32,000 nt of DNA, taken from NCBI GenBank assembly GCA_028713935.1, contig JAQTNI010000006.1:1-32000 (forward strand), given 5' to 3'. Origin of the DNA: Candidatus Iainarchaeum sp. GTDB taxonomy: Archaea; Iainarchaeota; Iainarchaeia; Iainarchaeales; GCA-2688035. A program made the position numbers and the translations under genes. How positions within the stretch are numbered: position 1 is the stretch's first letter; each line of letters begins with the position of its first letter. Shown one piece after another: positions 1 to 27,431 of the stretch. Under the pieces are notes generated by a model. The model saw only the letters and a list, made by a program, of their open reading frames with translations. It was not told the DNA's origin and searched no databases.

Positions 1-60
1 AAAAATTATAAGAATTTCCCAGACAGCGGGAAAAACAGTTTATTACAGGCGCGTAATCTA

Positions 61-122
61 AACTGCCCTTTCTTTTTCTTTGCAAGAAAAAGAAAGTGTA
101 AGTTGCCCAAAGAAAAAGAACA
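61..122 (-). repeat. Inverted-orientation copy of the S12-S7 spacer element. It contains a 13-bp hairpin, CTTTCTTTTTCTT (68-80) / AAGAAAAAGAAAG (84-96).
   Basis: The reverse complement of 61-122 aligns by hand to 10422-10480 at roughly 85-90% identity. A perfect stem is visible in the sequence. Confidence 0.6.
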
Positions 123-200
123 TAAATTAATGATAAACAGATTGCCAAAAAGAAAGAATCCTGAATCTTTGATAAACAAGAAAAAAGCAATAAAAGAAAA

Positions 201-251: not shown

Positions 252-3236
252 ATGCAGAACTGGGAAGTTGTTGAGGCTTATTTCAAAAACAGGAATTTTG
301 CCCAAATGGAAATTGATTCCTTTAACCAGTTTGTTGACCAGAAGCTCAACGAGATTGTCGATGAAAACAAGGAAATTGTCCCAAAAATAGAAGAAGTCAG
401 GATTGAATTGTCAAACATTGAAATTTCAAAGCCGTCAATAACAGAAGCAGACGGAAGCCCAAGGTCAAGCTTTTTTCCAATGGAGGCAAGAATCAGGAAC
501 AGGACTTATTCGGGAAAAATTTCGCTTACAATGAAATTATTCAGGAGAGACGTTGAACAGGACACAAGAAAAGCATACATCGGGGATTTGCCAATAATGG
601 TGAAATCAAAATTATGCTGGCTCAACGGAAAAACAGATGAAGAGCTCGCGGAAATGGGCGAAGACCCAAAGGATTTTGGCGGATATTTTATAATCAACGG
701 AAGCGAAAAAGCCCTGATAACACAGGAAGTGCTTGCAAGCGACAGGGTTTTGATTTCAGAAATTCCAAAAGGAGTGGCTGCAGAAGTTATTTCAACAAAA
801 GGCGCTTTCAAGGGAAGAGTCAGGGTTGCAAGGCACACTGACGGAATGATTTATGTCACTTTCCCGGCTTCGCCAAGAAAATTAAAACTGTTTGTATTGC
901 TGAAAGCCCTTGGGCTTATTTCCATACGCGAAATCCAGGATGCATTTCCCGAAGAAAAAGAAATTGAAAACGATGTGCTTTTGAACTGGCAGAACACAAT
1001 TGCAAAAACAGAAGAAGAAGCGCTTGACAGGATTGGAAAATATGTTGCGCCTGGGCAGGTTGTTGATTACAGGCTCAGAAGGGCAAGAGAAGTAATTGAC
1101 GCTTTCCTGTTGCCCCACATTGGCCAGAAAAAAACAGACAGGCTTGCAAAAGCTTATTACCTTACAATGATGGCAACAAAGGCAATTGAAAGGTATTATG
1201 GATTAAGAAGCGAGGATGACAAGGACCATTATGCAAACAAGCGCCTTGAATTGAGCGGAAAATTAATGGAACACCTGTTTCGGTACAGTTTCAAATATTT
1301 TATAAAGGATTTAAGATTCCAGATTGACAGGACAATTACAAGAAGAAGAAAATTGAACATTGCAACAGTAGTAAGGCCAGGCGCAATAAGCGAAAGAATA
1401 AGGTTTGCAATGAGCACTGGCAACTGGATTGGGCGCGCAACAGGAGTAAGCAAGTTCATGGACAGGGTGAATTACTTAAGCCCGCTTACAGACCTCAGAA
1501 AAGTGAAAAGCCCCCTGAACAAAAACAGGGAATTATACGAGGCAAGGGATGTGCATGGAACCCATTGGGGAAGGCTTGACCCGATTGAAACCCCTGACGG
1601 CCCAATGTGCGTTGCGCCTGAAACAGAAATGATTCTGGATGATTATTCTGGAATAAGCATTAAGGAATTTGAAGGCATCTGGAAGCAAAGGAAAATTGTT
1701 TCTGTTGACTGGGAAAAAAACAAGGCTGAAAAAAAAGCTGATATTGTAAGGCACATTAAAATGGCTTCAAACAAAAAAGTTTTTGAATTATTTACAAAAG
1801 AGAGCAACAGGAGAATAATTGCTTCTGCAGACCATCCTTTCTTTTCGGAACAATTTGGAAAAACTGCATTGGAAAACTTAAAGAAAGGGAACCGGGTTGC
1901 TGTGTTGCCAATAAAACCAATAAAATTTGAAACCCCTGAAAATAAGATTCTGATTAGCGAAGAAAGCATTTTCAATGCCTGCCCTGAAAAAACAGACAAA
2001 CAATACGTTTTGAACGAATTAAAGAAAAAAGGCTTTGTTCCATTGCTTGATTCAAATCAAAAAGCAATTGTTTTGGCGAAATTGCTCGGCTTTATTTTTG
2101 GAGACGGCGGGTTAAGCATTTCAATGAAAAAGTACAAGTCGAACTGCACAATTACTTTTGCTGGAAGGCAAGCAGATTTGGAAGAAATTGCAGGGGACAT
2201 AAAAGAAATGGGTTTTGATTGCGGAAAGATTATCAGAACAAAAAGGGTTTCTGTGCTTTCAAATGGCAGGGTTATTTCGGGCTATTCAGAAACAATGCAT
2301 TGCTATTCAAAGCCATTGTGGATTTTATTCAGGGCGCTGGGCGCCCCTGTTGGGGACAAAGCAATTAGCCCGACAAGCGTGCCAAATTGGCTGATGAACT
2401 CAAGGAAAATTTTTGCAATGGAATTTTTAAGCGGTTATTTTGGAAGCGAAATGACAAAGCCCAGTGCGGATAAAAGAAACGGAACGGTCTTTTTGCAGCC
2501 AGTTGTTTCACTGAACAAGTCAAAGGAACTCGTGCAAAATGGATTGGAATTTGCAGAGCAATTGAAGGAATTGCTGCAAAAGTTTGGCATTAAGGCTTCC
2601 TGCATAAAAATTGTTGACGGAATAAAAAGAAAATCAGGAATTGAAACTAAAAAAATAAAATTGCTTGTTTCCAGCAGACCGGATAGTTTGCTTAATTTAT
2701 ATGGCACTGTTGGGTTTGGGTATTGCGCTGAAAGAAAAAGCCTTGCAAGAATGGCTTACAGCTATTTGCTGTTCAAAAAAACAATGGTTGAAAAGAGAAT
2801 CAAGGCGCAGCAATTTGCAATTGCATTGGCAAATAACGGAAAAAGCATTTCACAAATAGCCGGAGAAATAGGCCCTGATGTGAAAAAGCATGATGTGAGC
2901 AATTGGCTTAAAAAAGACAAAAAAGGCTTGAACAAGTTCGTGCGGGTTTCCGAAAAAGAATTTCCAAAATTCAATGACTGGATTAGGGAACACTGCATTT
3001 CGGAAAACGGCCTGGTTTGGGAAACAATTGAATCAATAAAAGAAACAGAATGCAGGGAAGTAATGGATGTAACCACAAAACAGGCTTACCATAATTTTTT
3101 TGCAAATGGCTTTTTGACAGGCAACTGCGGCTTAGTGAAAAATCTTTGCTTAATGGCGGAAGTTACAACTGATGCTGATGAAAAACCAATTGAAGAATTG
3201 CTGAACAAGAAAGGCGTAAAAATGAGGAAATTGTAG
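252..3236 (+). CDS. rpoB2: DNA-directed RNA polymerase subunit B'' (N-terminal half of a split RpoB), interrupted by an in-frame intein
   Basis: The N-terminus (WEVVEAYF...EIDSFNQFV) and the motifs GGYFIINGSEKA, DDKDHYANKRLELSG and RLDPIETPDGPM...CGLVKNL are typical of archaeal RpoB. The track ORF starts at TTG 225; the ATG at 252 gives the canonical N-terminus. Stop is TAG 3234-3236. Confidence 0.95.
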   Translation: MQNWEVVEAYFKNRNFAQMEIDSFNQFVDQKLNEIVDENKEIVPKIEEVRIELSNIEISKPSITEADGSPRSSFFPMEARIRNRTYSGKISLTMKLFRRDVEQDTRKAYIGDLPIMVKSKLCWLNGKTDEELAEMGEDPKDFGGYFIINGSEKALITQEVLASDRVLISEIPKGVAAEVISTKGAFKGRVRVARHTDGMIYVTFPASPRKLKLFVLLKALGLISIREIQDAFPEEKEIENDVLLNWQNTIAKTEEEALDRIGKYVAPGQVVDYRLRRAREVIDAFLLPHIGQKKTDRLAKAYYLTMMATKAIERYYGLRSEDDKDHYANKRLELSGKLMEHLFRYSFKYFIKDLRFQIDRTITRRRKLNIATVVRPGAISERIRFAMSTGNWIGRATGVSKFMDRVNYLSPLTDLRKVKSPLNKNRELYEARDVHGTHWGRLDPIETPDGPMCVAPETEMILDDYSGISIKEFEGIWKQRKIVSVDWEKNKAEKKADIVRHIKMASNKKVFELFTKESNRRIIASADHPFFSEQFGKTALENLKKGNRVAVLPIKPIKFETPENKILISEESIFNACPEKTDKQYVLNELKKKGFVPLLDSNQKAIVLAKLLGFIFGDGGLSISMKKYKSNCTITFAGRQADLEEIAGDIKEMGFDCGKIIRTKRVSVLSNGRVISGYSETMHCYSKPLWILFRALGAPVGDKAISPTSVPNWLMNSRKIFAMEFLSGYFGSEMTKPSADKRNGTVFLQPVVSLNKSKELVQNGLEFAEQLKELLQKFGIKASCIKIVDGIKRKSGIETKKIKLLVSSRPDSLLNLYGTVGFGYCAERKSLARMAYSYLLFKKTMVEKRIKAQQFAIALANNGKSISQIAGEIGPDVKKHDVSNWLKKDKKGLNKFVRVSEKEFPKFNDWIREHCISENGLVWETIESIKETECREVMDVTTKQAYHNFFANGFLTGNCGLVKNLCLMAEVTTDADEKPIEELLNKKGVKMRKL
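1608..3125 (+). mobile_element. Intein (506 aa) with a LAGLIDADG homing-endonuclease domain, inserted in rpoB''
   Basis: The extein junction ETPDGPM|C...GN|CGLVKNL restores the conserved RpoB motif TP(E/D)Gxx-CGLVKNL. The N-terminal residue is Cys (CVAPETEMIL), block B is like SADHPFF, and the C-terminal block is YHNFFANGFLTGN followed by a +1 Cys. The two LAGLIDADG motifs are LAKLLGFIFGDGGLS (2073-2117) and AMEFLSGYFGSEMTK (2415-2459). Confidence 0.85.
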
Positions 3237-3266: not shown

Positions 3267-5090
3267 ATGGCTGGAACTGGAAAAGCTGCAAAAATTTATA
3301 TTAATGGAAGGCTGATTGGCTTTCACGATTCTCCGAAAGAATTGACTGACGAATTAATCAATTCAAGAAGAGCAAACAAAATAAGCCCGCTTGTAAACAT
3401 TGCTTATCATGCCGACACAAACGAGCTTTACCTTAACACTGATGCGGGAAGAGTGCAGAGGCCCCTTATTGTTGTTGAAAATGGAAAATCAAAGCTTACT
3501 GAAGAGCATTTAAGGGATTTGAAAAGCGGAAAATTAACCTGGCAGGACTTGCAGAAACAGGGAGTAATTGAATATGTTGATTCTGAAGAAGAAGAAAATT
3601 TAATGGTTGCATTGAAACCAGAGGATTTGGCAAAAGAGCACACTCATCTGGAAATAAGCTCAATTGCAATCCTGAGCCTGATTTCTTCAATGGTTCCTTA
3701 TTTGCAGCACGACATGGCTGGAAAAGTATTGCACGGCGCAAAAATGTTCAAGCAGGCACTGGGAATAAACGGAATAAATTACAACCTGAGGACAGACACT
3801 GAAGGTTTTTTGATGCATTATCCACAGAAAGAACTTATTTCAAGCAGGACAAATGCCCTTATTGAACTTGAAAAAAGGCCGCAGAGCCAGAATTTTGTTG
3901 TTGCAATAATGCCATTTTACGGCTTTAACACAATGGATGCGCTTGTCATGAACAAAGGTTCCCTTGAAAGAGGCCTTGCAAGGACATCTTATTTCAGGAT
4001 GTATGAAGGCGCTGAAAACAGGTATCCCGGAGGCCAGACAGACAAATTTGAAATTCCAACAGAAGAAACAATTGGCTATCTGCAGGAAGACCTTTACAAA
4101 AACCTTGGCGCAGACGGATTGGCTGAAATTGAATCCTGGGCAGGCGAAAGGTCAATTGTAATTGGAAGAACTTCTCCCCCAAGATTTTTGGAAGAAGTTT
4201 CTGAATTTGGCGTTGTAAAAGAAAAAAGAAGAGAAAGCAGCGTTACTACTAGAAAAGGAAAGCCCGGCTTTGTGGACAGCATTCTTATAACGGAAAATGA
4301 GGATTCAAACAAGCTTGTAAAAATAAAAATCAGGAGCACAATGCAGCCAGAGACAGGCGACAAAGTGAGCAGCAGGCACGGCCAAAAGGGAGTAATAGGC
4401 GCTGTTTTTCCAGAAGCAGACATGCCTTTTACAGCAGACGGAGTAAAACCAGACCTTATTCTTAACCCGCACAGCATTCCAAGCAGAATGACAATGGGCC
4501 ATTTGCTGGAAATGCTTGGCGGAAAATCAGGGGCAATGGCTGGCCAGGCAATTGACGGGACTCCTTTTGAATCAATGCCAATAAAAGAGCTTGAAGAAAT
4601 GCTTAAGCAGCACGGCTTCAGGCAGGACGGCAAAGAGGCTTTTTATGACGGCTTAACAGGCAGAAGGCTTGAAGGCGAAATTTTTGTTGGAATGTGCGCT
4701 TACAGAAGGCTGTTCCATATGGTTGCACACAAAATGCAGGCAAGGGCAAGAGGCCCAGTGCAAATCCTTACAAGGCAGCCAACAGAAGGAAAAGAAAAAG
4801 AAGGCGGCCTGCGCTTTGGTGAAATGGAAGGCGAAACACTTGTGGGGCACGGAGCGGCAATGCTTTTGCACGAAAAATTCATAGAAGATTCTGACAAGGC
4901 AGTTGAGCTTGTATGCGAAAAATGCGGAGTAATCGCAATCCATGACATGATAAGAAACAAAAAATACTGCCCAATCTGCGAAAGCAGCAAGGTCTATCCA
5001 GTTGAAATGAGCTATGGATTCAAATTATTGCTTGATGAATTAAAGGCACTCGGAATAATGCCCAAACTAAACATTACGGACAAAGTGTAA
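3267..5090 (+). CDS. rpoB1: DNA-directed RNA polymerase subunit B' (C-terminal half of split RpoB)
   Basis: Motifs GDKVSSRHGQKGV, PDLILNPHSIPSRMTMGHLLE, FGEMEGETLVGHGAA and the C-terminal Zn ribbon CEKCG...CPIC. SD-like GGGTG (3257-3261) lies 5 nt upstream of the ATG. Confidence 0.97.
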   Translation: MAGTGKAAKIYINGRLIGFHDSPKELTDELINSRRANKISPLVNIAYHADTNELYLNTDAGRVQRPLIVVENGKSKLTEEHLRDLKSGKLTWQDLQKQGVIEYVDSEEEENLMVALKPEDLAKEHTHLEISSIAILSLISSMVPYLQHDMAGKVLHGAKMFKQALGINGINYNLRTDTEGFLMHYPQKELISSRTNALIELEKRPQSQNFVVAIMPFYGFNTMDALVMNKGSLERGLARTSYFRMYEGAENRYPGGQTDKFEIPTEETIGYLQEDLYKNLGADGLAEIESWAGERSIVIGRTSPPRFLEEVSEFGVVKEKRRESSVTTRKGKPGFVDSILITENEDSNKLVKIKIRSTMQPETGDKVSSRHGQKGVIGAVFPEADMPFTADGVKPDLILNPHSIPSRMTMGHLLEMLGGKSGAMAGQAIDGTPFESMPIKELEEMLKQHGFRQDGKEAFYDGLTGRRLEGEIFVGMCAYRRLFHMVAHKMQARARGPVQILTRQPTEGKEKEGGLRFGEMEGETLVGHGAAMLLHEKFIEDSDKAVELVCEKCGVIAIHDMIRNKKYCPICESSKVYPVEMSYGFKLLLDELKALGIMPKLNITDKV

Positions 5091-5120: not shown

Positions 5121-7757
5121 ATGATGCTGATGCTTGTAAAAAGAATTTCTTCAATCCAGTTCAATGTCTTAAGCCCTGCAATGCTCAGGAAAATGTCTGC
5201 GCTTGAAATAAAAACTCCGGACACTTATGACAAGGACGGTTATCCAATGGAAGGCGGCCTTATGGACCCGCATCTTGGCGTGATTAACCCTGGCTTGAGA
5301 TGCAAAACCTGCGGGCAAAAAATGAAGCAATGCCCTGGCCACTTCGGAAGCCTTGAATTGGTAAGGCCTGTCCTGCACTCCGAATTCAGCAAAAGAATTG
5401 AGCAATTGATGCATGCAAGCTGCAAAGAATGCAGCAGGATTGCATTGCCTGACGACAAGCTTGAATATTACAGGAGAATGCTTACCCCCCAGAACGCGGA
5501 AATCATTGGAAAAAAAATTTCCGCAAAAGCGCGCAAAATAAAAAAGTGCCCCCATTGCAAGGCAGAAAAAGGCACTGTGGTGCTTGACAAGCCGACAAAC
5601 TTTTTTTATAACAAGGAAAGAATCTATCCAACCCAGATAAGGGAATGGATGGAAAAAATTCCTGACAAGGACCTGGAATTGTTCGGCTATAAGCAGGATG
5701 TAATAAGGCCTGAATGGTTTGTTTTGACAGTAATGCCAGTTCCTCCAGTAACAATAAGGCCAAGCATTACTCTTGAATCAGGAATAAAATCCGAAGATGA
5801 TTTGACACACAAGCTTGTTGACATTATAAGAATCAATCTGCGCCTGAAAGACAACATTGATGCAGGGGCTCCGCAGCTTATCATTGAAGACCTCTGGGAT
5901 TTGCTGCAGTACCACGTAACAACATATTTTGACAACAATACTGCGGGAGTTCCGCCTGCAAAACACAGGAGTGGCCGCGCTTTAAGGACTCTTGTGCAGA
6001 GGCTGAAGGGAAAAAAAGGAAGATTCAGGCACAACCTGACAGGAAAAAGAGTGAATTTTGCAGCAAGAAGCACTATTACTCCAGACCCTTATATTCTTAT
6101 CAGCGAAGTCGGAATCCCAACGGAAATCGCCAATGAACTGACTGTCCCTGAAATGGTGACGGAATGGAACAAAAAAGAAATCCAGGCGCTTGTGAAAAAT
6201 ACTGACAAATCTGTTTATCTTGTCAGGCCGAATGAAACGAGAAAAAAAATTGATGAGGCAAACAAGCAGGAAGTAATTGAAGAAATTGACATTGGATTCA
6301 GGGTTGAAAGAAAGCTGATGGATGGCGACGTGGTTTTGTTCAACAGGCAGCCGTCATTGCACAGGCTCAGCATGCTGGCGCACACTGCAAGGGTAATGCC
6401 GGGAAGGACATTCAGGATGAACCCTATTGTCTGCAAGCCTTACGGCGCGGATTTTGATGGCGATGAAATGAACCTGCATGTGCCCCAGACAGAAGAGGGA
6501 AAAACAGAGGCATTGGAATTAATGTTTGCAAGAAATCAGGTTATTTCGCCAAGATATGGTGCGCCAATAATTGTCCTTGCCGAAGACGGAATTACTGGCT
6601 TGTTTGCATTGACAACTCATTCAATGGAATTCACAAGAGAAGATGCAATGGCATATTTTTACGAAATCGGCCTGAAGGAAATTCCAAAGCCTGACAGGGG
6701 GAAAAAGTATTCGGGAAAATTGATTTTCAGCCAGTTGCTGCCAAAAGACCTGAATCTGGAATACAAGACATTTACCTGCAATGTCCTGAGAAAAACTGGA
6801 ATCTGCAATGACTGTGTAAAGGAAAAATGCAGCCATGATGCGTACCTTAAAATTGCAGACGGAAAACTTGTTATGGGCGTAATTGACAAGGAATCCCTTG
6901 GGGAAGGCAGCGGAAAACTTGTGGACGCGCTTGCAAGGCATTATCCAAGCGAAGTCATTGAAAAGTTTTATGCGGGAGCTTCAAGAATAGTGAGTGATTT
7001 GCTTACAAAAAAAGGCATGACAGTCGGCCTTGATGAATATGAAGTGAGCGAGCATATTGAAAAGGAAAAAGAAAAGATTTTCAAGGAAACAATTGCAAAA
7101 GCAGATGTTTTTGTGCAAAAATACAAAAAAGGAAATCTTGAGCATATTCCCGGAAAAACTATTGAAGAAAGCTTTGAAACATATATTATGCGGGCAGCAG
7201 GGGAAGCCAAAAGCACTCTTGAAAAAGAAATCATGAAGGAAAAACTTAAGCCTGTGCTGGAAGGGTCATCAAAACTGAATACTATTGCGATGATATTGAG
7301 TGGCGGAAGAGGCGGAAGCATAAACCTCATGAACATTTCGGGATTCTGGGGCCAGGTTGCAGTCAGGTCTGGAAGGCCAAAAAGGGGCTTTACTTCAAGG
7401 CTTCTTTCATTGAATTACAAGGATGATGTTGGATTGTTCGCAGGCGGATTTTTAAGGGGCAATTTTATCAAGGGAATGGGCGCAGTTGAATATTTTTATC
7501 ACAGCATGGGTGGAAGGCAGGGAGAAGTTGACACTGGTGTTTCAACAAAAGTGTCGGGATACCTTTACAGGAGGCTTGCAAACAGCCTCAAGGACCTCAT
7601 GGTGAACAATGACGGCACAGTGAGGACTGCCTCAAAGAACATTGTGCAGTACAATTACGGTGAAGACTCTGTTTTCCCGCAAAAAACAGTGAAGGGAAAA
7701 ACCATTGATGTTGACATGGAATTTGTAAGAATGAACACTGAAAAAAAGGAAGACTGA
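5121..7757 (+). CDS. rpoA1: DNA-directed RNA polymerase subunit A'
   Basis: Zn motif CKTCGQKMKQCPGHFG, the catalytic motif YGADFDGDEMNLHVPQ, and RQPSLHRLSM. The length of 878 aa is normal for archaeal A'. Confidence 0.97.
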   Translation: MMLMLVKRISSIQFNVLSPAMLRKMSALEIKTPDTYDKDGYPMEGGLMDPHLGVINPGLRCKTCGQKMKQCPGHFGSLELVRPVLHSEFSKRIEQLMHASCKECSRIALPDDKLEYYRRMLTPQNAEIIGKKISAKARKIKKCPHCKAEKGTVVLDKPTNFFYNKERIYPTQIREWMEKIPDKDLELFGYKQDVIRPEWFVLTVMPVPPVTIRPSITLESGIKSEDDLTHKLVDIIRINLRLKDNIDAGAPQLIIEDLWDLLQYHVTTYFDNNTAGVPPAKHRSGRALRTLVQRLKGKKGRFRHNLTGKRVNFAARSTITPDPYILISEVGIPTEIANELTVPEMVTEWNKKEIQALVKNTDKSVYLVRPNETRKKIDEANKQEVIEEIDIGFRVERKLMDGDVVLFNRQPSLHRLSMLAHTARVMPGRTFRMNPIVCKPYGADFDGDEMNLHVPQTEEGKTEALELMFARNQVISPRYGAPIIVLAEDGITGLFALTTHSMEFTREDAMAYFYEIGLKEIPKPDRGKKYSGKLIFSQLLPKDLNLEYKTFTCNVLRKTGICNDCVKEKCSHDAYLKIADGKLVMGVIDKESLGEGSGKLVDALARHYPSEVIEKFYAGASRIVSDLLTKKGMTVGLDEYEVSEHIEKEKEKIFKETIAKADVFVQKYKKGNLEHIPGKTIEESFETYIMRAAGEAKSTLEKEIMKEKLKPVLEGSSKLNTIAMILSGGRGGSINLMNISGFWGQVAVRSGRPKRGFTSRLLSLNYKDDVGLFAGGFLRGNFIKGMGAVEYFYHSMGGRQGEVDTGVSTKVSGYLYRRLANSLKDLMVNNDGTVRTASKNIVQYNYGEDSVFPQKTVKGKTIDVDMEFVRMNTEKKED

Positions 7758-7781
7758 ACCAGGATTTATAAAGTGATTTTT

Positions 7782-9122
7782 ATGGCAAAAAACAAAAAAG
7801 AAGACGTTGAAATTCTTGAAGAAGAAGAGCTTGACGATCTTGAAGATGCGGAAATGGAAGGGAGAAAAGGCAGGGAAGACCTGAGCGGGGAAGGCGAAGA
7901 AGAACCTGAAGAAAGTGCGGAAAAAGAAGGCCCAAAAGTAAAGGAAAAAAAAGGCAGGGACAGGGAAATTCCCGATGCCAAAAAAGAGGACTGGGAAGAA
8001 CAGCCTTTGCCATACTGGGTAATGGCGCAAATTGCTTTTATTGCTGAAAGGGAAAAACTGAGCAAGCAAAAAGTCGAATCGTTAATTGAAAGGATAAAGG
8101 AAAAATTTTCCGACCTGACAGTGGAAGCAGGAGAAGCAGTTGGAATTGTTGCGGCACAAAGCATTGGAGAGCCAGGCACACAGCTTACTTTGAGGACAAA
8201 ACACTATGCGGGAGCAGCTGAAGTCAGTGTTGGCTCGGGAATACAGAGAGTTGAGGAAATTGTTGATGGCAGAAGCAAGTCAAAATATCCCACAATGACA
8301 ATTTTTTTGAATTCTCCATTGAACAAGGACAGGGAAAAAACAGTTAAATTTGCAAACAAGCTTGTTGAAGTCAGGCTGCAGGATGTTGCAAAGCTGCATG
8401 AGGATTTTGCAAACAGCGTAATCAGCATAGAACTGGATGAAAAAGCCCTGAAAGAGCATTATCTTGACGAAAAAGACATTATTGCAAAAATAAAATCAGG
8501 GATAAAGCTTGAAGCGCACCAGAAAAAAAATGTTGTGGAATTGAATTTTAAAAAAGAGCAGCTCATAAGGATAAGGAAGGCTATTCTGAAGCTTATGAAT
8601 TCAAGGGTACAGGGCATAAAAGGAATTGGAAAAGTTTTGATTGCAGAAGAAGGCAAGGAATTTGTAATAAAAACTTCGGGTTCAAACCTGAAAGGGGTTT
8701 TGAAACTTGAAGAAATTGATTCCACAAGATTGACAACAAACGACATAATGGAAACAAGCCTTGTGCTTGGAATTGAAGCGGGAAGGGCGCTTGTCGTAAA
8801 TGAACTGCAAAAAACATTCAAGGACAACAAGATTGCAATTGACATCAGGCATCTCATGCTTTTGGCAGACCTCATGACTTACAGCGGGGAAGTAAAGGGA
8901 ATAGTGAGGACAGGCATAAGCAGGGAAAAAGCAAGCCCTTTTGCAAGAGCTGCTTTTGAAGAAACAGTAAAGCACCTTGTTGATGCGAGTTTCAGGGGCG
9001 AAAGCGAAGACCTGCAGGGAGTTGTTGAAAATATTATTGTTGGCCAGCCAGTAAAAGTCGGCACTGGAATTGTTGAATTGGTAATGGACAGCTCAAAAAC
9101 AGGGAAAAGCAAAAAAGAATAG
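7782..9122 (+). CDS. rpoA2: DNA-directed RNA polymerase subunit A'' with an acidic low-complexity N-terminal extension
   Basis: Motif [28 protein letters not shown] and the C-terminal [11 protein letters not shown]...[10 protein letters not shown]. The track ORF starts at GTG 7773; the first ATG is 7782. Confidence 0.95.
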
Positions 9123-9205
9123 CGAAGCATAAGCAATTAAAAAAATTTGGTTTGGGAGATTTGTAATAAGCAAAAAAAAAAAATTTATTTTGAATGGTTT
9201 TTTAT

Positions 9206-9532
9206 ATGGTTGAAATCGACGCTAACAAGGAAATCAGAAGGGCTGTGGATACAGGTTCTGTGAAATTTGGCTTCAAGCAGTCCGAGAAAAACGTTTTAAA
9301 AGGCAATGCTGAGCTAATTATTTTAAGTTCTAACGTTCAAAAGCGCATAAAGGAAAAAATTCAGCATTATTGTGCTTCTGCAAAAATCCCGATTTTCAAT
9401 TTTTCAGGAAATTCAGTGGAATTGGGCAGTGTTTGCGGAAAGCCGTTTGTAATTTCTTGCCTTTGCATTGAGAAATCCGGAAAAAGCAAGGCCTTGGGCC
9501 TGGCAAAGATTCAGAGCAGTGAAAACAAATGA
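9206..9532 (+). CDS. rpl30e: Ribosomal protein L30e (eL30)
   Basis: The pattern IRRAVDTGSVKFGFKQSEKNVLKGNAELIILSSN...ELGSVCGKPFVISCLCI matches the L30e/L7Ae-fold family, and this is the canonical position after rpoA''. The alternative ATG at 9194 adds 4 residues. Confidence 0.88.
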   Translation: MVEIDANKEIRRAVDTGSVKFGFKQSEKNVLKGNAELIILSSNVQKRIKEKIQHYCASAKIPIFNFSGNSVELGSVCGKPFVISCLCIEKSGKSKALGLAKIQSSENK

Positions 9533-9942
9533 AACTTGGTGCAGATGAGATTTTTTACCTGAACGCTTTGAATTCGATTTCCGGGGCAAATGCGAGGGAC
9601 TGTGTTGTGCAGGGCAACACTGTGAGCTTCATTGTCAGGCCAGGGGAATTGGGCAGGGCAATTGGAAAAAACGCCCTGAACATAGAGCAGCTGAAAAAAA
9701 GGCTGAAAAAAAACATTGAAATTTTTGAATACTCCGAAAACGCAGGGGAATTTTTAAAAAAAGCGTTTTATAACATTGAATTCAAAAAAATTGATTCCGT
9801 TGAAGAACAGGGAAAAAAAGCCCTTGTGGTCGCGGTTGACGCGGAAAACAGGAGCAAAATGCTCAACAATTCAGGAAAAATAAAAAGAATAAAAGAAATC
9901 GCAAAAAGGAATTATGGAATAGAGGAAATAAAAATCAGGTAA
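9529..9942 (+). CDS. nusA: Archaeal NusA-like transcription factor (two KH domains)
   Basis: 137 aa. GRAIGKNALNIEQLKKRL and a second KH-like segment (NNSGKIKRIKEIAKR). Canonical position between L30e and S12. There is a 4-nt ATGA overlap with rpl30e. Confidence 0.82.
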   Translation: MKLGADEIFYLNALNSISGANARDCVVQGNTVSFIVRPGELGRAIGKNALNIEQLKKRLKKNIEIFEYSENAGEFLKKAFYNIEFKKIDSVEEQGKKALVVAVDAENRSKMLNNSGKIKRIKEIAKRNYGIEEIKIR

Positions 9943-9970: not shown

Positions 9971-10399
9971 ATGGCAAGAGGAGAATTCGCAGCAAGAAGC
10001 CTTGAAAATGACAGGAAAAAATGGCGCTGGAAAGACCCGTATTACAAAAAAAAGAAAGACAGCTCCAAAAAGAAATACGATTTGCTAGAGGGAGCTCCAC
10101 AGGCAAGGGGGATTGTGCTTGAAAAAAGAGGCGTAACTGCAAAACAGCCAAACTCCGGAATCAGAAAATGCGTAAGAGTGCAACTTACAAAAAGCGGAAG
10201 GCAGCTTACAGCGCTTGCGCCTTATGACGGCGCAATAAAGCACATTGACGAGCATGACGAAGTAATAGTTGAAGGAATCGGCGGCGCAAAAGGCGGCCCA
10301 AAAGGAGACCTTTGGGGAGTAAAATTCAGGGTTACTCATGTGAATAACCAATGCCTTGAAATGCTGCGCACAGGCAAAAAAGAAAAAGTGAAAAGGTAA
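9971..10399 (+). CDS. rps12: Ribosomal protein S12 (uS12)
   Basis: [46 protein letters not shown] is the conserved uS12 core. Confidence 0.97.
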
Positions 10400-10413
10400 A
10401 ATTTTGTTTATCA

Positions 10414-10472
10414 AAAGTGTAAGTTCTTTTCTTTGGGAAACTTACACTTTCTTTTCTTCCAAGAAAAGAAAG
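10414..10472 (+). promoter_or_regulatory. Structured S12-S7 intercistronic element with two overlapping 12-bp hairpins; the A-rich arm abuts the rps7 SD
   Basis: AAAGTGTAAGTT (10414-10425) pairs with AACTTACACTTT (10439-10450). CTTTCTTTTCTT (10447-10458) pairs with AAGAAAAGAAAG (10461-10472). GGGGAG (10472-10477) lies 5 nt before the ATG at 10483. Confidence 0.6.
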
Positions 10473-10482
10473 GGGAGATTTT

Positions 10483-11088
10483 ATGGACAGCTTGATTTTT
10501 GGAAAATGGGACACAAAAGATTTGCAGATAAAAGACCTTGGGCTTGCAAGATACGTGAACCTGAAGGCAAAAACAATTCCGCATACATTCGGCAGGGTTG
10601 CAAAAAAAAGATTTGAAAAAGCAAACATAAGCATTGTTGAAAGGCTGATAAACAAGGTAATGCGCTCTGGCCAGGGAAAAAGAAAAATGAGCGGAAAATA
10701 CATAAGAGGAAGAAACAGCTGCGGAAAAAAGCTCCAGGCAATGAAAATCATTGAAAAGGCATTTGAAAGGGTTGAAAGGGAAACAAAGCAAAACCCCGTA
10801 CAGGTTTTGATAAAGGCAATTGAAAATTCCGCCCCAAGGGAAGATGTCACAAGAATAAAAAGAGGCGGAGTAATGTACACACAGGCAGTCGACCTTTCCC
10901 CCCTGAAAAGAGTTGACGAGGCATTGAAAAATATTGCATTAGCCGCTTTTTCAGGAAGCTTCAACAACAAGAAAAAAGCCGAAGATGCCCTTGCGGAAGA
11001 AATAATTTCAGCTTCAAAAGAAGACAACAAAAGCTTTTCAGTAAAAAGGCGCGACGAAGTTGAAAGAATAGCAAAAGCGTCAAGATAA
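10483..11088 (+). CDS. rps7: Ribosomal protein S7 (uS7)
   Basis: LIFGKWD...RLINKVMRSG...NPVQVLIKAIENSAPREDVTRIKRGGVMYTQAVDLSPLKRVDEALKNI is typical archaeal uS7. Confidence 0.95.
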   Translation: MDSLIFGKWDTKDLQIKDLGLARYVNLKAKTIPHTFGRVAKKRFEKANISIVERLINKVMRSGQGKRKMSGKYIRGRNSCGKKLQAMKIIEKAFERVERETKQNPVQVLIKAIENSAPREDVTRIKRGGVMYTQAVDLSPLKRVDEALKNIALAAFSGSFNNKKKAEDALAEEIISASKEDNKSFSVKRRDEVERIAKASR

Positions 11089-11162
11089 ATTTCTTTTTTG
11101 CTTACAAATTTTTTTTGAAAAATCAGAGCCAAATTTTTAAAACAAAAAAAAACGTGATTGCA

Positions 11163-13355
11163 ATGACAAAAAGAGAAGACATGGTTGAACTGGCAGAAAA
11201 AATGATGGCTGACAGGAAAAACATAAGAAACATTGGGACAGTGGCGCACATTGACCATGGAAAAACAACTTTGTCAGATGCGCTGATTGCAGCGGCAGGA
11301 CTCATAAGCCAGGAAGTTGCAGGAACAGCGCAGATAATGGATTACGAGGACCAGGAACAGCAAAGAGGCATAACAATCAATGCCGCAAACATTTCACTTG
11401 TTTTTGATTATGAAAACGAAAAAACACTCGTCAACCTAATTGACACGCCGGGGCATGTTGATTTTACAGGCGAAGTAATAAGGGCAATGAGGGCAGTTGA
11501 CGGAGTAATTGTTGTTGTTGATGCAGTTGAAGGAATAATGCCACAAACTGAAACAGTGATAAGGCAGGCATTAAAGGAATATGTAAAGCCAGTGCTTTTC
11601 ATAAACAAAGTTGACAGGCTGATTAACGAACTGAAAGTTTCAGAAGAAGAAATGCAAAAAAGATTTTTAAAAGTCATTGCGGCAATCAACAGCCTTATCA
11701 GCAAAAATGCAGCAGGCGAATTCAAGGAAAAATGGCTAGTAAACCCAGCAAACGGAAGCGTTGCATTCGGCTCTGCAAAAAGAAAATGGGCCGTCTCAGT
11801 TCCGTATATGCAAAAATCAAAAATCAATTTCAAGCAGATTTATTCCTACCTTAAAAACGATGACCAAAAAAAGCTCGCCGAAATAAGCCCTGTTTATGAG
11901 GTTGTTTTGAAAATGGCGCGAGACCACCTGCCCAACCCCTTGGAAGCACAAAAATACAGGACCAAAAACATCTGGACAGGCGACCTTGAATCAGAAATCG
12001 GAAAATCAATGCAGGCTTGCGATGAAAAAGGCGAAATAGCAATGATGATTACAGATGTAAGCGTAAATCCCCATGTTGGCGACATTGCCACTGGCAGGAT
12101 TTACTCTGGCACACTGAAAAACGGGGTTATTGTAAAACTCTTGGGAATGCAGAAAGAAATCAGGATACAAAAAGCAGGAGTTTTTATGGGGCCGGAATTT
12201 ATTGATGTCACAAAGGCGGAAGCCGGCAATGTTGCGGCAATAGTCGGCTTGAAAGAAGTTTTTGCAGGCGAAACAATTTCCACAATTGACATGAAGCAAT
12301 TTGAAAGCTTCAAATCTTCTGTTGAACCAGTAATGACTGTCAGCGTAGAGGCAAAACAAACAAAAGACTTGCCAAAACTAATCCAGGTTTTAAGGCAGCT
12401 TTCAAAAGAAGACCCAAACCTCAGGACATCAATAAACCAGGAAACAGGAGAACACCTGCTTTCGGGAATGGGCGAGCTTCATCTTGATGTCAACAGGTAC
12501 AGGATAGAAGAAACGCACAAAATTCCAATTGCAATGGGAGCGCCGATTGTTGTTTACAAAGAAGCAATTACAAAGCCATCGCAAACACTTGAAGGAATTT
12601 CCCCGAACAGGCACAACAAATTCAAAATGAGAGTGGAACCAGTTCCTGAAGAAATTTTGCTGAAGCTTGTTGAAGCAAAAATAGAGGCAAAAATAAGGCT
12701 AAAAGACAAGGAAATAATGTCAAGGCTGGAAGAATGCGGATTTGAAAAAGAAATGTCAAAAAAAACATGGTGCGTGCACAACAACAATTTGCTTGTAGAT
12801 TCAACAAGGGGAATTGTGGCGCTGCATGAAATAAAAGAGCTTGTAATACAGGGCTTTGAAGACGCAATGGACGAAGGCCCTATTGCAAAAGAAAAATGCT
12901 TCGGGGTAATGGTAATACTTGAAGACGCAACTTTGCATGAGGACAGCATTCACCGCGGCCCTGCACAAGTACTGCCTGCAATTACAAGAACAATTTTTGC
13001 AGGAATGCTTTCAACAGACCACATACTGCTTGAACCAAAACAATTATTGTCAATCACAGTGCCAAGCGATTACATGGGCGCAGTAACAAAAGAACTTGGG
13101 TCAAAAAGGACACAAATTTCAGAAATTCGGACAGAAGGCGACACAACAGTAATTGTTGCAAAAGCCCCTGTAAAAGAACTGATCGGCTTCAGCGCAGACA
13201 TGCGCGGAGCAACCCAGGGAAGAGCAGTCTGGACAGCGGAATACGCAGGCTATGAAGTCCTGCCAAGAGAACTGCAAAAAGGCATAATCACAGAAGTAAG
13301 AAAAAGAAAAGGCCTGGAACCAGAGCCAAAAGCATGGCAATTCTTCCTGGAGTAA
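11163..13355 (+). CDS. fusA: Translation elongation factor 2 (aEF-2)
   Basis: G1 motif AHIDHGKTTL, DTPGHVDF, NKVDR, and the diphthamide-site motif HEDSIHRG. The track ORF begins at TTG 11115; the ATG at 11163 (MTKRED...) gives the canonical N-terminus. Confidence 0.97.
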   Translation: MTKREDMVELAEKMMADRKNIRNIGTVAHIDHGKTTLSDALIAAAGLISQEVAGTAQIMDYEDQEQQRGITINAANISLVFDYENEKTLVNLIDTPGHVDFTGEVIRAMRAVDGVIVVVDAVEGIMPQTETVIRQALKEYVKPVLFINKVDRLINELKVSEEEMQKRFLKVIAAINSLISKNAAGEFKEKWLVNPANGSVAFGSAKRKWAVSVPYMQKSKINFKQIYSYLKNDDQKKLAEISPVYEVVLKMARDHLPNPLEAQKYRTKNIWTGDLESEIGKSMQACDEKGEIAMMITDVSVNPHVGDIATGRIYSGTLKNGVIVKLLGMQKEIRIQKAGVFMGPEFIDVTKAEAGNVAAIVGLKEVFAGETISTIDMKQFESFKSSVEPVMTVSVEAKQTKDLPKLIQVLRQLSKEDPNLRTSINQETGEHLLSGMGELHLDVNRYRIEETHKIPIAMGAPIVVYKEAITKPSQTLEGISPNRHNKFKMRVEPVPEEILLKLVEAKIEAKIRLKDKEIMSRLEECGFEKEMSKKTWCVHNNNLLVDSTRGIVALHEIKELVIQGFEDAMDEGPIAKEKCFGVMVILEDATLHEDSIHRGPAQVLPAITRTIFAGMLSTDHILLEPKQLLSITVPSDYMGAVTKELGSKRTQISEIRTEGDTTVIVAKAPVKELIGFSADMRGATQGRAVWTAEYAGYEVLPRELQKGIITEVRKRKGLEPEPKAWQFFLE

Positions 13356-13356
13356 A

Positions 13357-13429
13357 GCTTTTCTTTGCAGAGCAAAGAAAACCTTGGAAAAGAAACAATT
13401 TGCCTCTGGCAAATTGTGGTTCGCTTCGC
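13357..13429 (+). repeat. Post-fusA copy of the composite intergenic repeat: a hairpin, a TTGGAAAAGA box, a second hairpin, then TTCGCTTCGC
   Basis: The 10-bp stem TTTTCTTTGC (13359-13368) / GCAAAGAAAA (13372-13381) starts 4 nt after the stop codon. There is a 9-bp stem CAATTTGCC (13396-13404) / GGCAAATTG (13408-13416). TTCGCTTCGC (13420-13429) is shared with 26429-26438. Confidence 0.6.
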
Positions 13430-14884: not shown

Positions 14885-14907
14885 AAAGTTGCGCAAACAA
14901 ACAATGC

Positions 14908-14940
14908 GGAAGTAAAGTTTTTTTTACTTCCTTTTCCCTT
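14908..14940 (+). terminator. Hairpin plus T-tract after tuf
   Basis: GGAAGTAAA (14908-14916) pairs with TTTACTTCC (14923-14931), 9 bp, followed by CTTTTCCCTTAATTTTT. Confidence 0.5.
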
Positions 14941-26337: not shown

Positions 26338-26450
26338 GCCTTTTCTCTAAAGAGAAAAGCCTTGTTGCAAACCAAAAGGTTTGCGACGCGTCGCAAAGCA
26401 AAGCTTTGCAACGTGGGAAAAGAGGTTTTTCGCTTCGCGAAAAAAGGTTT
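26338..26450 (+). repeat. Composite structured intergenic repeat, copy A (five short hairpins plus a TGGGAAAAGA box)
   Basis: Stems are CTTTTCTCT/AGAGAAAAG (26340-26359), GCAAACC/GGTTTGC (26367-26384), the palindrome GCGACGCGTCGC (26383-26394), GCAAAGC/GCTTTGC (26393-26409) and TTTTTCGC/GCGAAAAA (26426-26444). The box is at 26414-26423. Confidence 0.65.
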
Positions 26451-27321: not shown

Positions 27322-27431
27322 GGCCTTTTCTTAAACATTGTAAAACCGAAAGGTTTTACGATGCCTCGCAAAGCAGTGCTTTGCAAGGAAGAAAAGCCCT
27401 GGGAAAAGAAGTTTTTTGCTTCGCAAAAAAC
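27322..27431 (+). repeat. Composite structured intergenic repeat, copy B, upstream of rpl3
   Basis: The outer stem GGCCTTTTCTT (27322-27332) / AAGAAAAGCCC (27389-27399) encloses GTAAAACC-GAAA-GGTTTTAC (27340-27359) and GCAAAGC-AGT-GCTTTGC (27368-27384). These are followed by TGGGAAAAGA (27400-27409) and the stem GTTTTTTGC/GCAAAAAAC (27411-27431). Confidence 0.65.

Follow-up and report, generated by a model that had tools for sequence, protein, structure and literature searches.

A dispersed family of structured repeats in DPANN archaea that may be built around a hairpin and a parallel third strand

The window analyzed here (the whole stretch of 32,000 nucleotides) covers the archaeal rpoH-rpoB-rpoA-L30e-NusA-S12-S7-EF2 cluster in a genome of Iainarchaeia (DPANN) and contains two copies of a short element. 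From sequence comparison we hold, with moderate confidence, that both copies belong to a dispersed DPANN family of structured repeats built to keep a hairpin and a third strand, that is, a triple helix. The family consists of small, intergenic repeats and is apparently undescribed: the core sequence was found in no paper, and no description of a DPANN intergenic motif of this kind was found in the literature. Comparative support for triple helices is rare, and here the three tracts vary in concert across dozens of natural variants, even at one orthologous site, which makes a strong testable case for a selected triple helix in archaeal genomes.

Copy 1 begins directly after the rpoH stop codon (TAA, 59-61), inside the 190-nt rpoH-rpoB spacer, and copy 2 fills the S12-S7 spacer (Table 1). 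A sequence-only reading had placed copy 1 upstream of rpoB; the spacer is correct, and the position is better given as directly behind the rpoH stop. It had also aligned the reverse complement of 61-122 with 10422-10480, and here the sequences and coordinates are correct, the three run-length differences between the copies are real (tracts in Table 1), and AAAGTGTAAGTT, the partner of its first hairpin, is indeed present in copy 2 only. The match of about 60 nt is right as far as it goes, but the likeness extends to ~80 nt, as TGATAAACA at 131-139 and 170-178 (+) matches 10405-10413 (-) and lengthens the similarity beyond the earlier limits. The ungapped core (88-116 on the minus strand, 10427-10455 on the plus strand) has 97% identity over 29 nt, and the 25-nt pattern TTTTCTTTGGGNAACTTACACTTTC occurs in the window at exactly these two sites, with 0 matches in 100 dinucleotide shuffles. 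The two copies are not recent duplicates of each other; they represent two sub-types, GGGCAAC...GGGCAG and GGGAAAC...GGGGAG, which also coexist in other genomes, and the upstream module of copy 1 is most similar to an element that a relative carries between S7 and EF2. A search for tRNA and other RNA genes across the window found none. No Rfam family reached its gathering threshold (best score 25 bits, threshold 50), and only noise was obtained at a permissive E-value.

Table 1. Element copies, their parts and related features in the window
Feature	Position	Strand	Remarks
Copy 1, terminal module	62..122	-	CM 81.1 bits, E 1e-15
Copy 1, U tract TTCTTTTTCTTT	120 to 109	-	
Copy 1, linker GGGCAACTTACA	108 to 97	-	
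Copy 1, pyrimidine arm CTTTCTTTTTCTT	96 to 84	-	
Copy 1, loop	83 to 81	-	
Copy 1, purine arm AAGAAAAAGAAAG	80 to 68	-	
Copy 1, head GGCAG(T)	67 to 62	-	Adjoins rpoH stop TAA 59-61
Copy 1, upstream (tail-side) modules	123..185	-	CTGTTTATCA-N10, degenerate second U-linker module TTCTTTCTTTTTGGCAAT, second TTGTTTATCAAAGATTCAGGA
Copy 2, tail-side module TTTGTTTATCA...	10403..10423	+	
AAAGTGTAAGTT, inverted partial copy	10414-10425	+	Specific to copy 2; can pair with the linker
Copy 2, terminal module	10424..10477	+	CM 72.7 bits
Copy 2, U tract TTCTTTTCTTT	10424-10434	+	
Copy 2, linker GGGAAACTTACA	10435-10446	+	
Copy 2, pyrimidine arm CTTTCTTTTCTT	10447-10458	+	
Copy 2, loop	10459-10460	+	
Copy 2, purine arm AAGAAAAGAAAG	10461-10472	+	
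Copy 2, head GGGAG	10473-10477	+	Also serves as Shine-Dalgarno-like site; the ATG of S7 (10483) follows after 5 nt
S7-EF2 spacer, ATTTCTTTTTTGCTTACAAATTTTTTT	11089..11114	+	Putative decayed remnant; by-eye alignment
Third triplex-type element, second family	13359..13416	-	6-nt linker; 3 nt past the EF-2 stop (13353-13355); order on the - strand: CAATTTGCC-AGA-GGCAAATTG hairpin, U TTTCTTTT, CCAAGG, TTTTCTTTGC, TCT, GCAAAGAAAA
EF1a-S10 spacer, GCGCAAACAAACAATGCGG	14891..14909	+	Putative remnant

Read from 5' to 3', each element has a pyrimidine tract (U) followed by the conserved linker GGG(C/A)AACTTACA of 12 nt; then come the pyrimidine arm, a loop of 3-4 nt, the purine arm and GG(C/G)AG. In the hairpin arms, 96.4% of the cells are paired, and U-A is replaced by C-G on both sides at three positions (in 7, 11 and 3 sequences; 21 cells) with no one-sided change; the two arms show perfect covariation. 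The U tract is a mirror repeat of the pyrimidine arm, and in 27 of 29 copies its whole length complements the purine arm in parallel register. Among distinct combinations, 22 of 24 show a full-length parallel match of U with their own partners; when partners were shuffled, the mean was 7.05 and the maximum 15, and none of 10,000 shuffles reached 22, a control in which the phylogenetic non-independence of the copies is ignored. The parallel match of U is at least as long as the antiparallel one in 29/29 copies and longer in 20, with the qualification that the tracts are low-complexity and quasi-palindromic and that in many copies the mirror and direct matches differ by only 1-3 nt. The asymmetric copies (T6CT4 / CT4CT6, T7CT3 / CT3CT5 and others) have an antiparallel match 2-3 nt below the parallel one. 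The suggestion of the sequence-only reading that a selected structure lies behind the coordinated lengths is supported by the covariation in the hairpin and the equal run-length vectors of the three tracts. Its view that two alternative pairings are preserved finds no support in that form: the first T-rich tract is not a direct but a mirror repeat of the hairpin pyrimidine arm. This parallel mirror geometry fits a Hoogsteen third strand, as in a triple helix.

The patterns used for exact searching prescribed the innermost T3 run on either side, a bias from which only ~10 pattern-independent copies are free. Such members have one and the same run vector in all three tracts, among them [4,6] in L002 and L012, [5,1,..] in L029 and [1,1,4,3] in L045, where the linker is unrelated. 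In the predicted MFE folds (ViennaRNA, Watson-Crick pairs only) the adjacent arms always pair and U stays free. The triplex-type architecture occurs three times in the window, compared to one match in 30 Markov shuffles. The third occurrence belongs to a second family with the same architecture and a CCNNGG linker, its third-strand linker being 6 nt at 13359-13395; between this post-EF-2 element and its orthologue in L002 there are three differences per tract in all three tracts, and the three-way match is kept. Pairing of the GGGCAG tail with the linker was also considered and rejected, since it yields only 2-3 weak pairs and leaves the linked C/C and A/G variants unexplained.

The sequence-only reading had described the element as dispersed and not specific to rps7, and this is borne out by 35 further loci in several DPANN lineages together with divergent members. 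The exact 21-nt core was found at 18 genome loci and 17 metagenome loci from Iainarchaeum/Iainarchaeia, Nanoarchaeia, Pacearchaeota and unclassified archaea, and the covariance-model search added more divergent members. Copy number is low (1-6 per genome fragment), and no match was found among 2.9 million viral contigs. L002 (rpoH-rpoB spacer of 21 nt) and L008 (9 nt) are two relatives that lack the ~165-nt insertion (62 to ~226) of which the upstream modules of copy 1 are part. The S12-S7 spacer is free of the element in L010 and L004 (18-20 nt) and in L008 (12 nt to the annotated S7 start). Since both spacers are ~20 nt in close relatives, both window copies are insertions. Conversely, the S7-EF2 and EF1a-S10 spacers are filled in L002, L010 and L003, whereas the window has putative remnants only: the S7-EF2 stretch is probably what is left of an element that is intact there in L002 and L010, and the EF1a-S10 stretch probably derives from the copy that L002 and L003 hold. 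Four spacers are polymorphic for the presence or absence of the element in genomes that share 93-96% identity in S7. At orthologous loci in two species pairs, the element is 96-98% identical compared to 74-91% for the flanks. No terminal inverted repeats were found, no target duplication is present at the window insertions, and no transposase lies beside the four L029 copies, whose neighbours are housekeeping genes. In the Pacearchaeota copies L022, L026 and L027, 19-23-nt direct repeats border the module plus element. As neither a transposase nor terminal inverted repeats nor consistent target duplications were found, any mobility of the family would lack an evident mechanism.

The GGGCAG end lies flush with tRNA ends, stop codons, Shine-Dalgarno sites and tRNA-intron junctions, in both orientations. 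The head is within 5 nt of the 3' end of an opposite-strand gene (tRNA 3' end or stop codon) in ~18 copies, including those behind rpoH and EF-2 in the window, and within 5 nt of the 5' end of a same-strand gene in ~10 copies; five copies lie between convergent genes. Six tRNA introns at the canonical position carry the element with its head flush with the splice junction (2 forward, 4 reverse), and the host genes include those for Ser and the single-isoacceptor Trp-CCA and Cys-GCA. A tRNA 5' end is the exact end of the element in three copies (two in L012, plus L019/L032), and several forward copies precede ribosomal protein and other genes (S7, S10, S3Ae, EF-2) or tRNAs. A promoter function was rejected: the A/T-rich hairpin loop stands ~17 to 30 nt ahead of the downstream tRNA or ATG, depending on arm length, and TTTAYCAAA boxes are confined to the tail modules of Iainarchaeia.

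In the explanation that we prefer, these would be short (~55-150 nt) structured repeats that are gained and lost between close strains. In single-stranded form, either as transcript or as transiently unwound DNA, the arms would make a perfect hairpin, and U would fold into its major groove, parallel to the purine arm. The triples, T(U)·A-T(U) with isolated C+·G-C, would then constitute an intramolecular Y·R-Y triple helix of 8-14 triples, and the complementary strand has the Y-loop-R-linker-R layout of bacterial purine-motif "intrastrand triplex" repeats. We infer that the triple helix is the selected feature, and that the element may have spread by copy-and-paste into spacers, tRNA leaders and trailers, and tRNA introns, sites that would be harmless because the element is removed from, or lies outside, the mature RNAs. 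In transcribed form its role would be limited to that of a stable barrier against 3'->5' decay or of a processing boundary (REP- or ENE-like), as opposed to termination. Between S12 and S7 the RNA would carry the triple-helix strand, with its end at the ribosome-binding site of S7; behind rpoH and EF-2 it is the opposite strand that is transcribed, and a hairpin would be all that forms. Given the two orientations relative to transcription, a pyrimidine-motif RNA triplex is possible in part of the copies only. Purine-motif RNA triplexes are regarded as unstable, and C+·G-C triples require protonation. The triplex alone does not account for the strict conservation of the 12-nt linker.

An extended version of this explanation, which we regard as unlikely, is that a selected triple-helix cassette moves through RNA-processing junctions, which would fit either RNA-level insertion or a 3'-end protection device in archaea that parallels the "triple helix + tRNA" of MALAT1. 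The GGGCAG terminus falls precisely at RNase P sites (tRNA 5' ends), tRNA 3' ends and splicing-endonuclease junctions of tRNA introns, and in the RNA-level route the element would be ligated to a processed RNA end and the product then copied into DNA again. If either variant is true, archaea would have a mobile or regulatory RNA element of a new class. The family itself marks rapid spacer turnover in what is, among tiny DPANN genomes, the most conserved operon, and connects intergenic repeats with tRNA-intron content. Its short, defined sequences are useful for biophysics and for studying RNA processing and decay in genetically intractable organisms.

Several other explanations deserve comparison with the triple helix. 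The two copies could in principle form two exclusive Watson-Crick hairpins in which the first T-rich tract competes for the A-rich tract, giving an attenuator- or riboswitch-like switch before rps7. Antiparallel pairing of U with the purine arm is indeed possible (11 bp in copy 1, 10 bp in copy 2), and the extra hairpin AAAGTGTAAGTT/AACTTACACTTT of copy 2 overlaps the base of hairpin 2. However, that extra hairpin exists in copy 2 alone, U is a mirror rather than a direct repeat whose antiparallel match is never longer, and the MFE fold always pairs the adjacent arms and leaves U free. Such a switch is also hard to reconcile with an element that occurs in both orientations, within tRNA introns and behind stop codons, and that relatives lack in their S12-S7 spacer, so we consider it very unlikely. 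Slightly different in kind is a strand-specific small RNA or cis-regulatory leader, with autoregulation by ribosomal protein S7 or an sRNA released from leaders or introns. Copy 2 occupies the intercistronic stretch between S12 and S7, the place at which S7 of E. coli represses translation, several forward copies precede S7, S10, S3Ae, EF-2 or tRNAs, and the linker is strongly conserved. Against this, there is no orientation preference (2 forward and 4 reverse in introns, ~10 forward and ~18 reverse at gene ends) and no Rfam match near threshold, and an S7 autoregulatory site of the str operon was rejected specifically, as the element is missing from S12-S7 in L010, L004 and L008 while many unrelated loci carry it; the chance of this explanation is accordingly very small. 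Chance similarity, or an insignificant one-off local duplication, might be suggested by finding only two near-identical copies with low-complexity tracts in the 32-kb window, but 0/100 shuffles match the core and the exact core is present at 35 other loci in other genomes, which leaves it with practically no credibility.

Placement and mobility bear on two further readings, both of which appear improbable to us. One is a bidirectional transcription terminator or insulator, with a DNA triplex or hairpin as road-block. Archaeal termination uses oligo-T, the element has T-rich tracts on both strands flush behind genes, the T-rich arm lies 0-4 nt past an opposite-strand tRNA 3' end or stop codon in ~18 copies, and five copies separate convergent genes. 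On the other hand, an efficient terminator in the six tRNA-intron copies, which occur in both orientations and include the single-isoacceptor Trp-CCA and Cys-GCA genes, would abolish the tRNA; an efficient terminator is thus unlikely, by an indirect argument from gene positions. The ~10 forward copies flush with a downstream tRNA or with a Shine-Dalgarno site and ATG leave no promoter room and must be read through. Moreover, invariance of the 21-nt core across classes would be unexplained, and bacterial PIT elements showed no terminator activity (PMC4666352). The other reading is a MITE or IS-derived non-autonomous transposon (e.g. of the IS200/IS605 type), the hairpin being the transposase site and the mirror tract incidental. 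Presence/absence at four spacers, both orientations, decayed relics and the 19-23-nt flanking direct repeats in L022, L026 and L027 speak for it, as does TTAC within the linker, which is the IS608 target tetranucleotide. Yet terminal inverted repeats were not found, the insertions in the window are without target duplication, genome fragments hold only 1-6 copies, and neither a transposase near the four L029 copies nor a viral match in 2.9 million contigs was found. The element is also conserved above its flanks at orthologous loci, and a transposon leaves the three-way covariation unexplained.

Among known elements, those closest in kind are PIT, BoxC and TMECO, the intrastrand-triplex repeats of bacteria (Hoyne et al. 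2000; Holder et al. 2015, PMC4666352), which are intergenic, without strand bias or mobile-element link, and tied to inter-strain variability (PMC4666352). Like the DPANN element, they have three consecutive homopurine/homopyrimidine blocks on one strand, forming a hairpin and a mirror-symmetric third block, and are short, highly similar, multi-copy, intergenic, free of strand bias, strain-variable and without visible transposon or phage tie; the reverse strand of the DPANN element also follows the Y-loop-R-linker-R order of TMECO. The sequences are unrelated, with TMECO being G/C-rich and the DPANN element A/T-rich (T·A-T plus isolated C+·G-C), and the latter does not match the TMECO consensus CCCTCNCCC-N3-6-GGGNGAGGG-N3-GGGNGAGGG. 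The loops are 3-6 and 3 nt in TMECO, whereas the DPANN element has a hairpin loop of 3-4 nt and a third-strand linker of 12 nt, longer than the 1-6-nt loops for which ITxF searches. Further differences are the archaeal hosts, the much lower copy number, one end that is flush with gene or RNA-processing boundaries, the presence of some copies inside tRNA introns, and the explicit three-way covariation across variants.

A likeness to the triple helices of ENEs with A-rich tracts (MALAT1, MENβ, KSHV PAN and transposon ENEs) can also be read from sequence alone. The 5'->3' order of U-rich Hoogsteen, U-rich Watson-Crick and A-rich strands is the same, U·A-U stacks are broken by single C+·G-C triples, and 8-14 triples fall within the range of RNA triple helices. 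As in MALAT1-mascRNA, three copies abut tRNAs, where RNase P would leave a triple helix at the RNA 3' end. In contrast to ENEs, however, in which an internal loop clamps a 3' tail, a simple hairpin with a 3-4-nt loop contributes the A-rich strand through its 3' arm; flanking stems and the ENE-type U-rich internal loop are absent; and the element occurs in both orientations with only 3 copies at a tRNA 5' end, so a strand-specific 3'-end position does not apply. A review from 2026 lists no archaeal example (PMC13541005). REP/BIME, Correia, ERIC and comparable small palindromic repeats between bacterial genes are likewise dispersed, structured, orientation-independent, co-transcribed in spacers or 3' flanks, and gained or lost between strains, and could similarly buffer upstream mRNA against 3' exonucleases; a triplex-type third tract is not a REP feature, and the DPANN core is conserved across phyla. 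Finally, the DPANN element resembles the transposed tRNA introns of Thermoproteales (Fujishima et al. 2010, as cited in PMC4090602) in that near-identical sequence sits in the introns of more than one tRNA gene (Ser, Trp, Cys and others), which implies that intron sequence has moved from gene to gene. It differs in that it is also found outside tRNA genes and in both orientations.

The two copies in the window, one on the reverse strand in the rpoH-rpoB spacer (copy 1) and one on the forward strand in the S12-S7 spacer (copy 2), read exactly as the sequence-only reading had given them (the reverse complement of 61-122, and 10422-10480). Their longest ungapped match spans 29 nt at 97% identity, and the 25-nt core TTTTCTTTGGGNAACTTACACTTTC matches the window at these two places only, with 0 matches in 100 dinucleotide shuffles. 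Gapped alignment of both copies confirmed the three run-length differences (T5/T4, T5/T4 and A5/A4) and extended the similarity into TGTTTATCA, and AAAGTGTAAGTT was found beside copy 2 only, in agreement with the remark that copy 1 lacks this hairpin partner. Copy 1 begins one base past the rpoH stop within a 190-nt spacer, reversed relative to the operon, while copy 2 occupies the whole 83-nt S12-S7 spacer in forward orientation.

Coordinates of features in the window and in compared loci (gene identities from Pfam)
Locus	Positions	Feature	Remark
Window	2-61	RpoH C-terminus	KIIRISQTAGKTVYYRRVI*
Window	62-122	Copy 1	reverse strand, terminal module
Window	105-108/63-66	Linked bases, copy 1
Window	131-139	TGTTTATCA, copy 1
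Window	141-185	Stacked modules
Window	252-3236	RpoB''	with intein
Window	3267-5090	RpoB'
Window	5121-7757	RpoA'
Window	7773-9122	RpoA''
Window	9194-9532	L30e
Window	9529-9942	NusA-KH
Window	9971-10399	S12
Window	10405-10413	TGTTTATCA, copy 2
Window	10424-10477	Copy 2	forward strand
Window	10435-10438/10472-10475	Linked bases, copy 2
Window	10483-11088	S7
Window	11089-11120	S7-EF2 spacer	resembles element remnant
Window	11115-13355	EF-2	TTG start as listed
Window	13359-13395	Third site of architecture scan
Window	13359-13416	Second family	directly after EF-2 stop
Window	26369-26420, 27344-27395	Palindromic repeat
L002	10631-14467	EF-2 region	with intein
L002	16030-16140	EF1a-S10 copy
L003	6100-6205	EF1a-S10 copy
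L003	35-95	Palindromic repeat	S12-S7 spacer
L011	5970-6103	Stacked modules
L012	4760-4860, 1993-2050	Stacked modules
L038		Stacked modules
L022	7207-7450	Direct repeats
L026	2097-2235	Direct repeats
L027	2910-3050	Direct repeats
L044	2330-2470	Direct repeats

The element is one member of a family with dispersed copies. Its 21-nt core CTTTGGGNAACTTACACTTTC was found at 18 loci in species-representative genomes (Ca. Iainarchaeum, 'ainarchaeum', Nanoarchaeia, Pacearchaeota and unclassified archaea) and on 17 metagenome contigs, with no match among viral contigs; this distribution excludes an rps7-specific regulator, as the sequence-only reading had anticipated. The host genome itself belongs to the DPANN class Iainarchaeia, alias 'Diapherotrites', according to its S7 homologues. 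A covariance model built from 28 copies recovers all of them together with divergent members that have other run lengths or linkers. The element has no matching Rfam family, and a literature search for the 21-nt core found it in no paper. Copies 1 and 2 are members of different sub-types of this family, not a recent duplicate pair.

Every copy has the same order: a first pyrimidine tract (U), GGG(C/A)AACTTACA, a pyrimidine arm starting with CTTTC, a loop of 2-4 nt, a purine arm ending with GAAAG, and GG(C/G)AG (the head). The hairpin is essentially perfect (96.4% of cells paired), and its variation is compensatory: three positions switch from U-A to C-G, in 7, 11 and 3 sequences, with 0 one-sided changes. 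When tracts are written as run-length vectors (U outward from GGG, the pyrimidine arm from its 5' end, the purine arm from its 3' end), the three vectors agree, being [3,5,2] in copy 1, [3,4,2] in copy 2 and [3,3,4], [3,4,4] or [3,5] among other copies; thus, U is a mirror repeat of the pyrimidine arm. Read in parallel register, U complements the purine arm (T over A, C over G), and of 29 distinct copies 27 match along the entire arm. Full parallel matches number 22 of 24, against a shuffled-partner mean of 7.05/24, and 0 of 10,000 shuffles reach 22. The exact search pattern is biased in that it prescribed the innermost T3 run of either side; copies found by the model outside this pattern keep the three-way rule with other vectors, each shared by all three tracts, namely [4,6] in L002 (a relative's locus) and L012, [5,1,..] in L029 and, with an unrelated linker, [1,1,4,3] in L045, the last three being further loci with family members.

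It had been proposed that two alternative Watson-Crick pairings are preserved. This part of the earlier interpretation is not supported, because U is a mirror repeat whose antiparallel match, as in an ordinary hairpin, is longer in 0 copies and shorter in 20. Mirror repeats of homopyrimidine tracts are not made by ordinary duplication or inversion, and the only structure known to us to select them is a triple helix with its third strand parallel to the purine strand. Cytosines in U always stand alone, which favours C+·G-C triples. A fold with the order Hoogsteen Y, linker, Watson-Crick Y, loop, R raises no topological difficulty, and the linker would join two strand ends at the hairpin base. 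Judged from sequence, the tracts have the geometry of a triple helix and not of two alternative hairpins, while selected structure and dispersal, the other parts of the interpretation, are upheld by the two-sided hairpin changes, the agreeing vectors and the loci carrying the core.

Most copies have their head no more than 5 nt from a gene boundary. The head abuts the 3' end of an opposite-strand gene in about 18 copies (eleven tRNAs, and stop codons including those of window rpoH and EF-2) and a same-strand gene start in about 10 (three tRNA 5' ends, and the Shine-Dalgarno and ATG of S7, S10 and EF-2); the same-strand S3Ae copy is further away, at 13 nt. Six copies lie within canonical-position tRNA introns (ARAGORN with introns), those of the first family in tRNA-Ser, Trp, Cys and one tRNA labelled Gly (tcc) by ARAGORN, and those of the second family, described below, in tRNA-Trp and tRNA-Ser. 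Two are forward and four reverse, and in 6/6 the head is flush with the splice junction. The neighbours of the four L029 copies are housekeeping genes, with no transposases.

Relatives with 84-96% S7 identity to the window served for comparison. The rpoH-rpoB spacer measures 21 nt in L002 and 9 nt in L008, versus 190 nt in the window, and the S12-S7 spacer 18 nt in L010 and 20 nt in L004, versus 83 nt; that of L002 (65 nt) holds only a degenerate 'U-linker' remnant. An intact element occupies the S7-EF2 spacer in L002 and L010 and the EF1a-S10 spacer in L002 and L003, and the window has remnant-like sequence in both. Thus, four operon spacers are filled or empty in varying combinations among close strains, and both window copies are insertions. 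Comparison of orthologous loci in two species pairs gave 96-98% identity for the element versus 74-91% for its flanks. In L002 and L003 the EF1a-S10 copy carries a stem-loop of about 50 nt inside the linker, between U-GGGCAAAC and the CTACAC-hairpin, reminiscent of the ENE stem-loop that separates two U-rich strands. Intein presence also varies among close strains: RpoB'' has one in the window and L004 (994 aa, Pfam Intein_splicing) and none in L002 and L008 (488-489 aa), and EF-2 has one with a LAGLIDADG domain in L002 and L003 (1278 and 1239 aa) and none in the window (746 aa). The listed window EF-2 start has no Shine-Dalgarno motif, and the true start may lie elsewhere.

As to function, an efficient terminator is unlikely because single-isoacceptor tRNA genes tolerate the element in either orientation, and copies flush upstream of genes leave no room for a promoter. 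BRE/TATA-like boxes follow some copies, and a promoter is itself unlikely because the distance to the downstream start changes with arm length. The absence of orientation bias among copies is difficult to square with a strand-specific RNA. What remains, on this evidence, is a structured repeat whose three-strand design appears to be under constraint, which is apparently copied into new sites and would persist where harmless, since these sites are outside mature RNAs or removed from them. The S12-S7 copy, whose head GGGGAG is the predicted S7 ribosome-binding site, would place the triple-helix strand in the mRNA of the operon; in the rpoH and EF-2 copies the complementary strand would be transcribed, so that only the hairpin could form in RNA. 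Our best guess at a role for this repeat is a REP- or ENE-like barrier to 3' exonucleases or a processing boundary.

Among known systems, bacterial intrastrand-triplex repeats (PIT, BoxC and TMECO) come closest. They are intergenic three-block Y-R-R motifs without strand bias, ties to mobile elements or promoter/terminator activity, and are associated with between-strain variability (PMC4666352). The DPANN family resembles them in architecture and behaviour but not in sequence: it is A/T-rich, resides in archaea, has a conserved linker that is longer than the 1-6-nt loops covered by the published search, and sits flush with processing boundaries, also inside tRNA introns. It shares the strand order of the MALAT1/PAN triple helices, and three copies adjoin an RNase P site, but it does not have their defining internal-loop clamp; a 2026 review lists no archaeal triple helix of this type (PMC13541005). 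The occurrence of similar sequence in the introns of different tRNAs is reminiscent of the intron transposition reported for Thermoproteales (PMC4090602).

A generic architecture scan of the window returned exactly three sites, copy 1, copy 2 and one after EF-2, with 1 hit in 30 Markov shuffles. The third represents a second family, with a 6-nt CCNNGG linker (CCAAGG in the window) and an upstream CAATTTGC/GCAAATTG hairpin. Its tracts are TTTCTTTT, TTTTCTTT and AAAGAAAA in the window and CTCTTTTT, TTTTTCTC and GAGAAAAA in the L002 ortholog, with three differences per tract in all three and complete matching. Other members of this family lie inside introns (tRNA-Trp and tRNA-Ser, in L011 and L014) or follow tRNAs (L019 and L026).

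In all copies of the first family, the bases after the first and last GGG are linked, GGGCAAC with GGGCAG and GGGAAAC with GGGGAG, which is not a Watson-Crick relation. The latter pairing is seen in window copy 2, L012 (twice), L015, L027 and L029, and both types are found together in single genomes. Upstream of the terminal module, the tabulated loci with stacked modules have one to three additional, more degenerate units made of a U tract and a GGGCAAC-like linker; those of Iainarchaeia carry CTGTTTAYCAAA at a constant 28-29 nt from the following GGG. In L022, L026, L027 and L044, direct repeats of 19-23 nt of the adjoining gene end (the 3' end of tRNA-Lys, a gene's final codons, a gene start) bracket tail module and element, and could be target duplications or slippage; in L022 the unit, 85 nt long, is tandemly repeated. 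An unrelated second family of palindromic intergenic repeats (TTGCAAACC..GGTTTGCGA..CGCAAAGC..GCTTTGCAA) occurs twice in the window and, relative to L002, is inserted in the S12-S7 spacer of L003.
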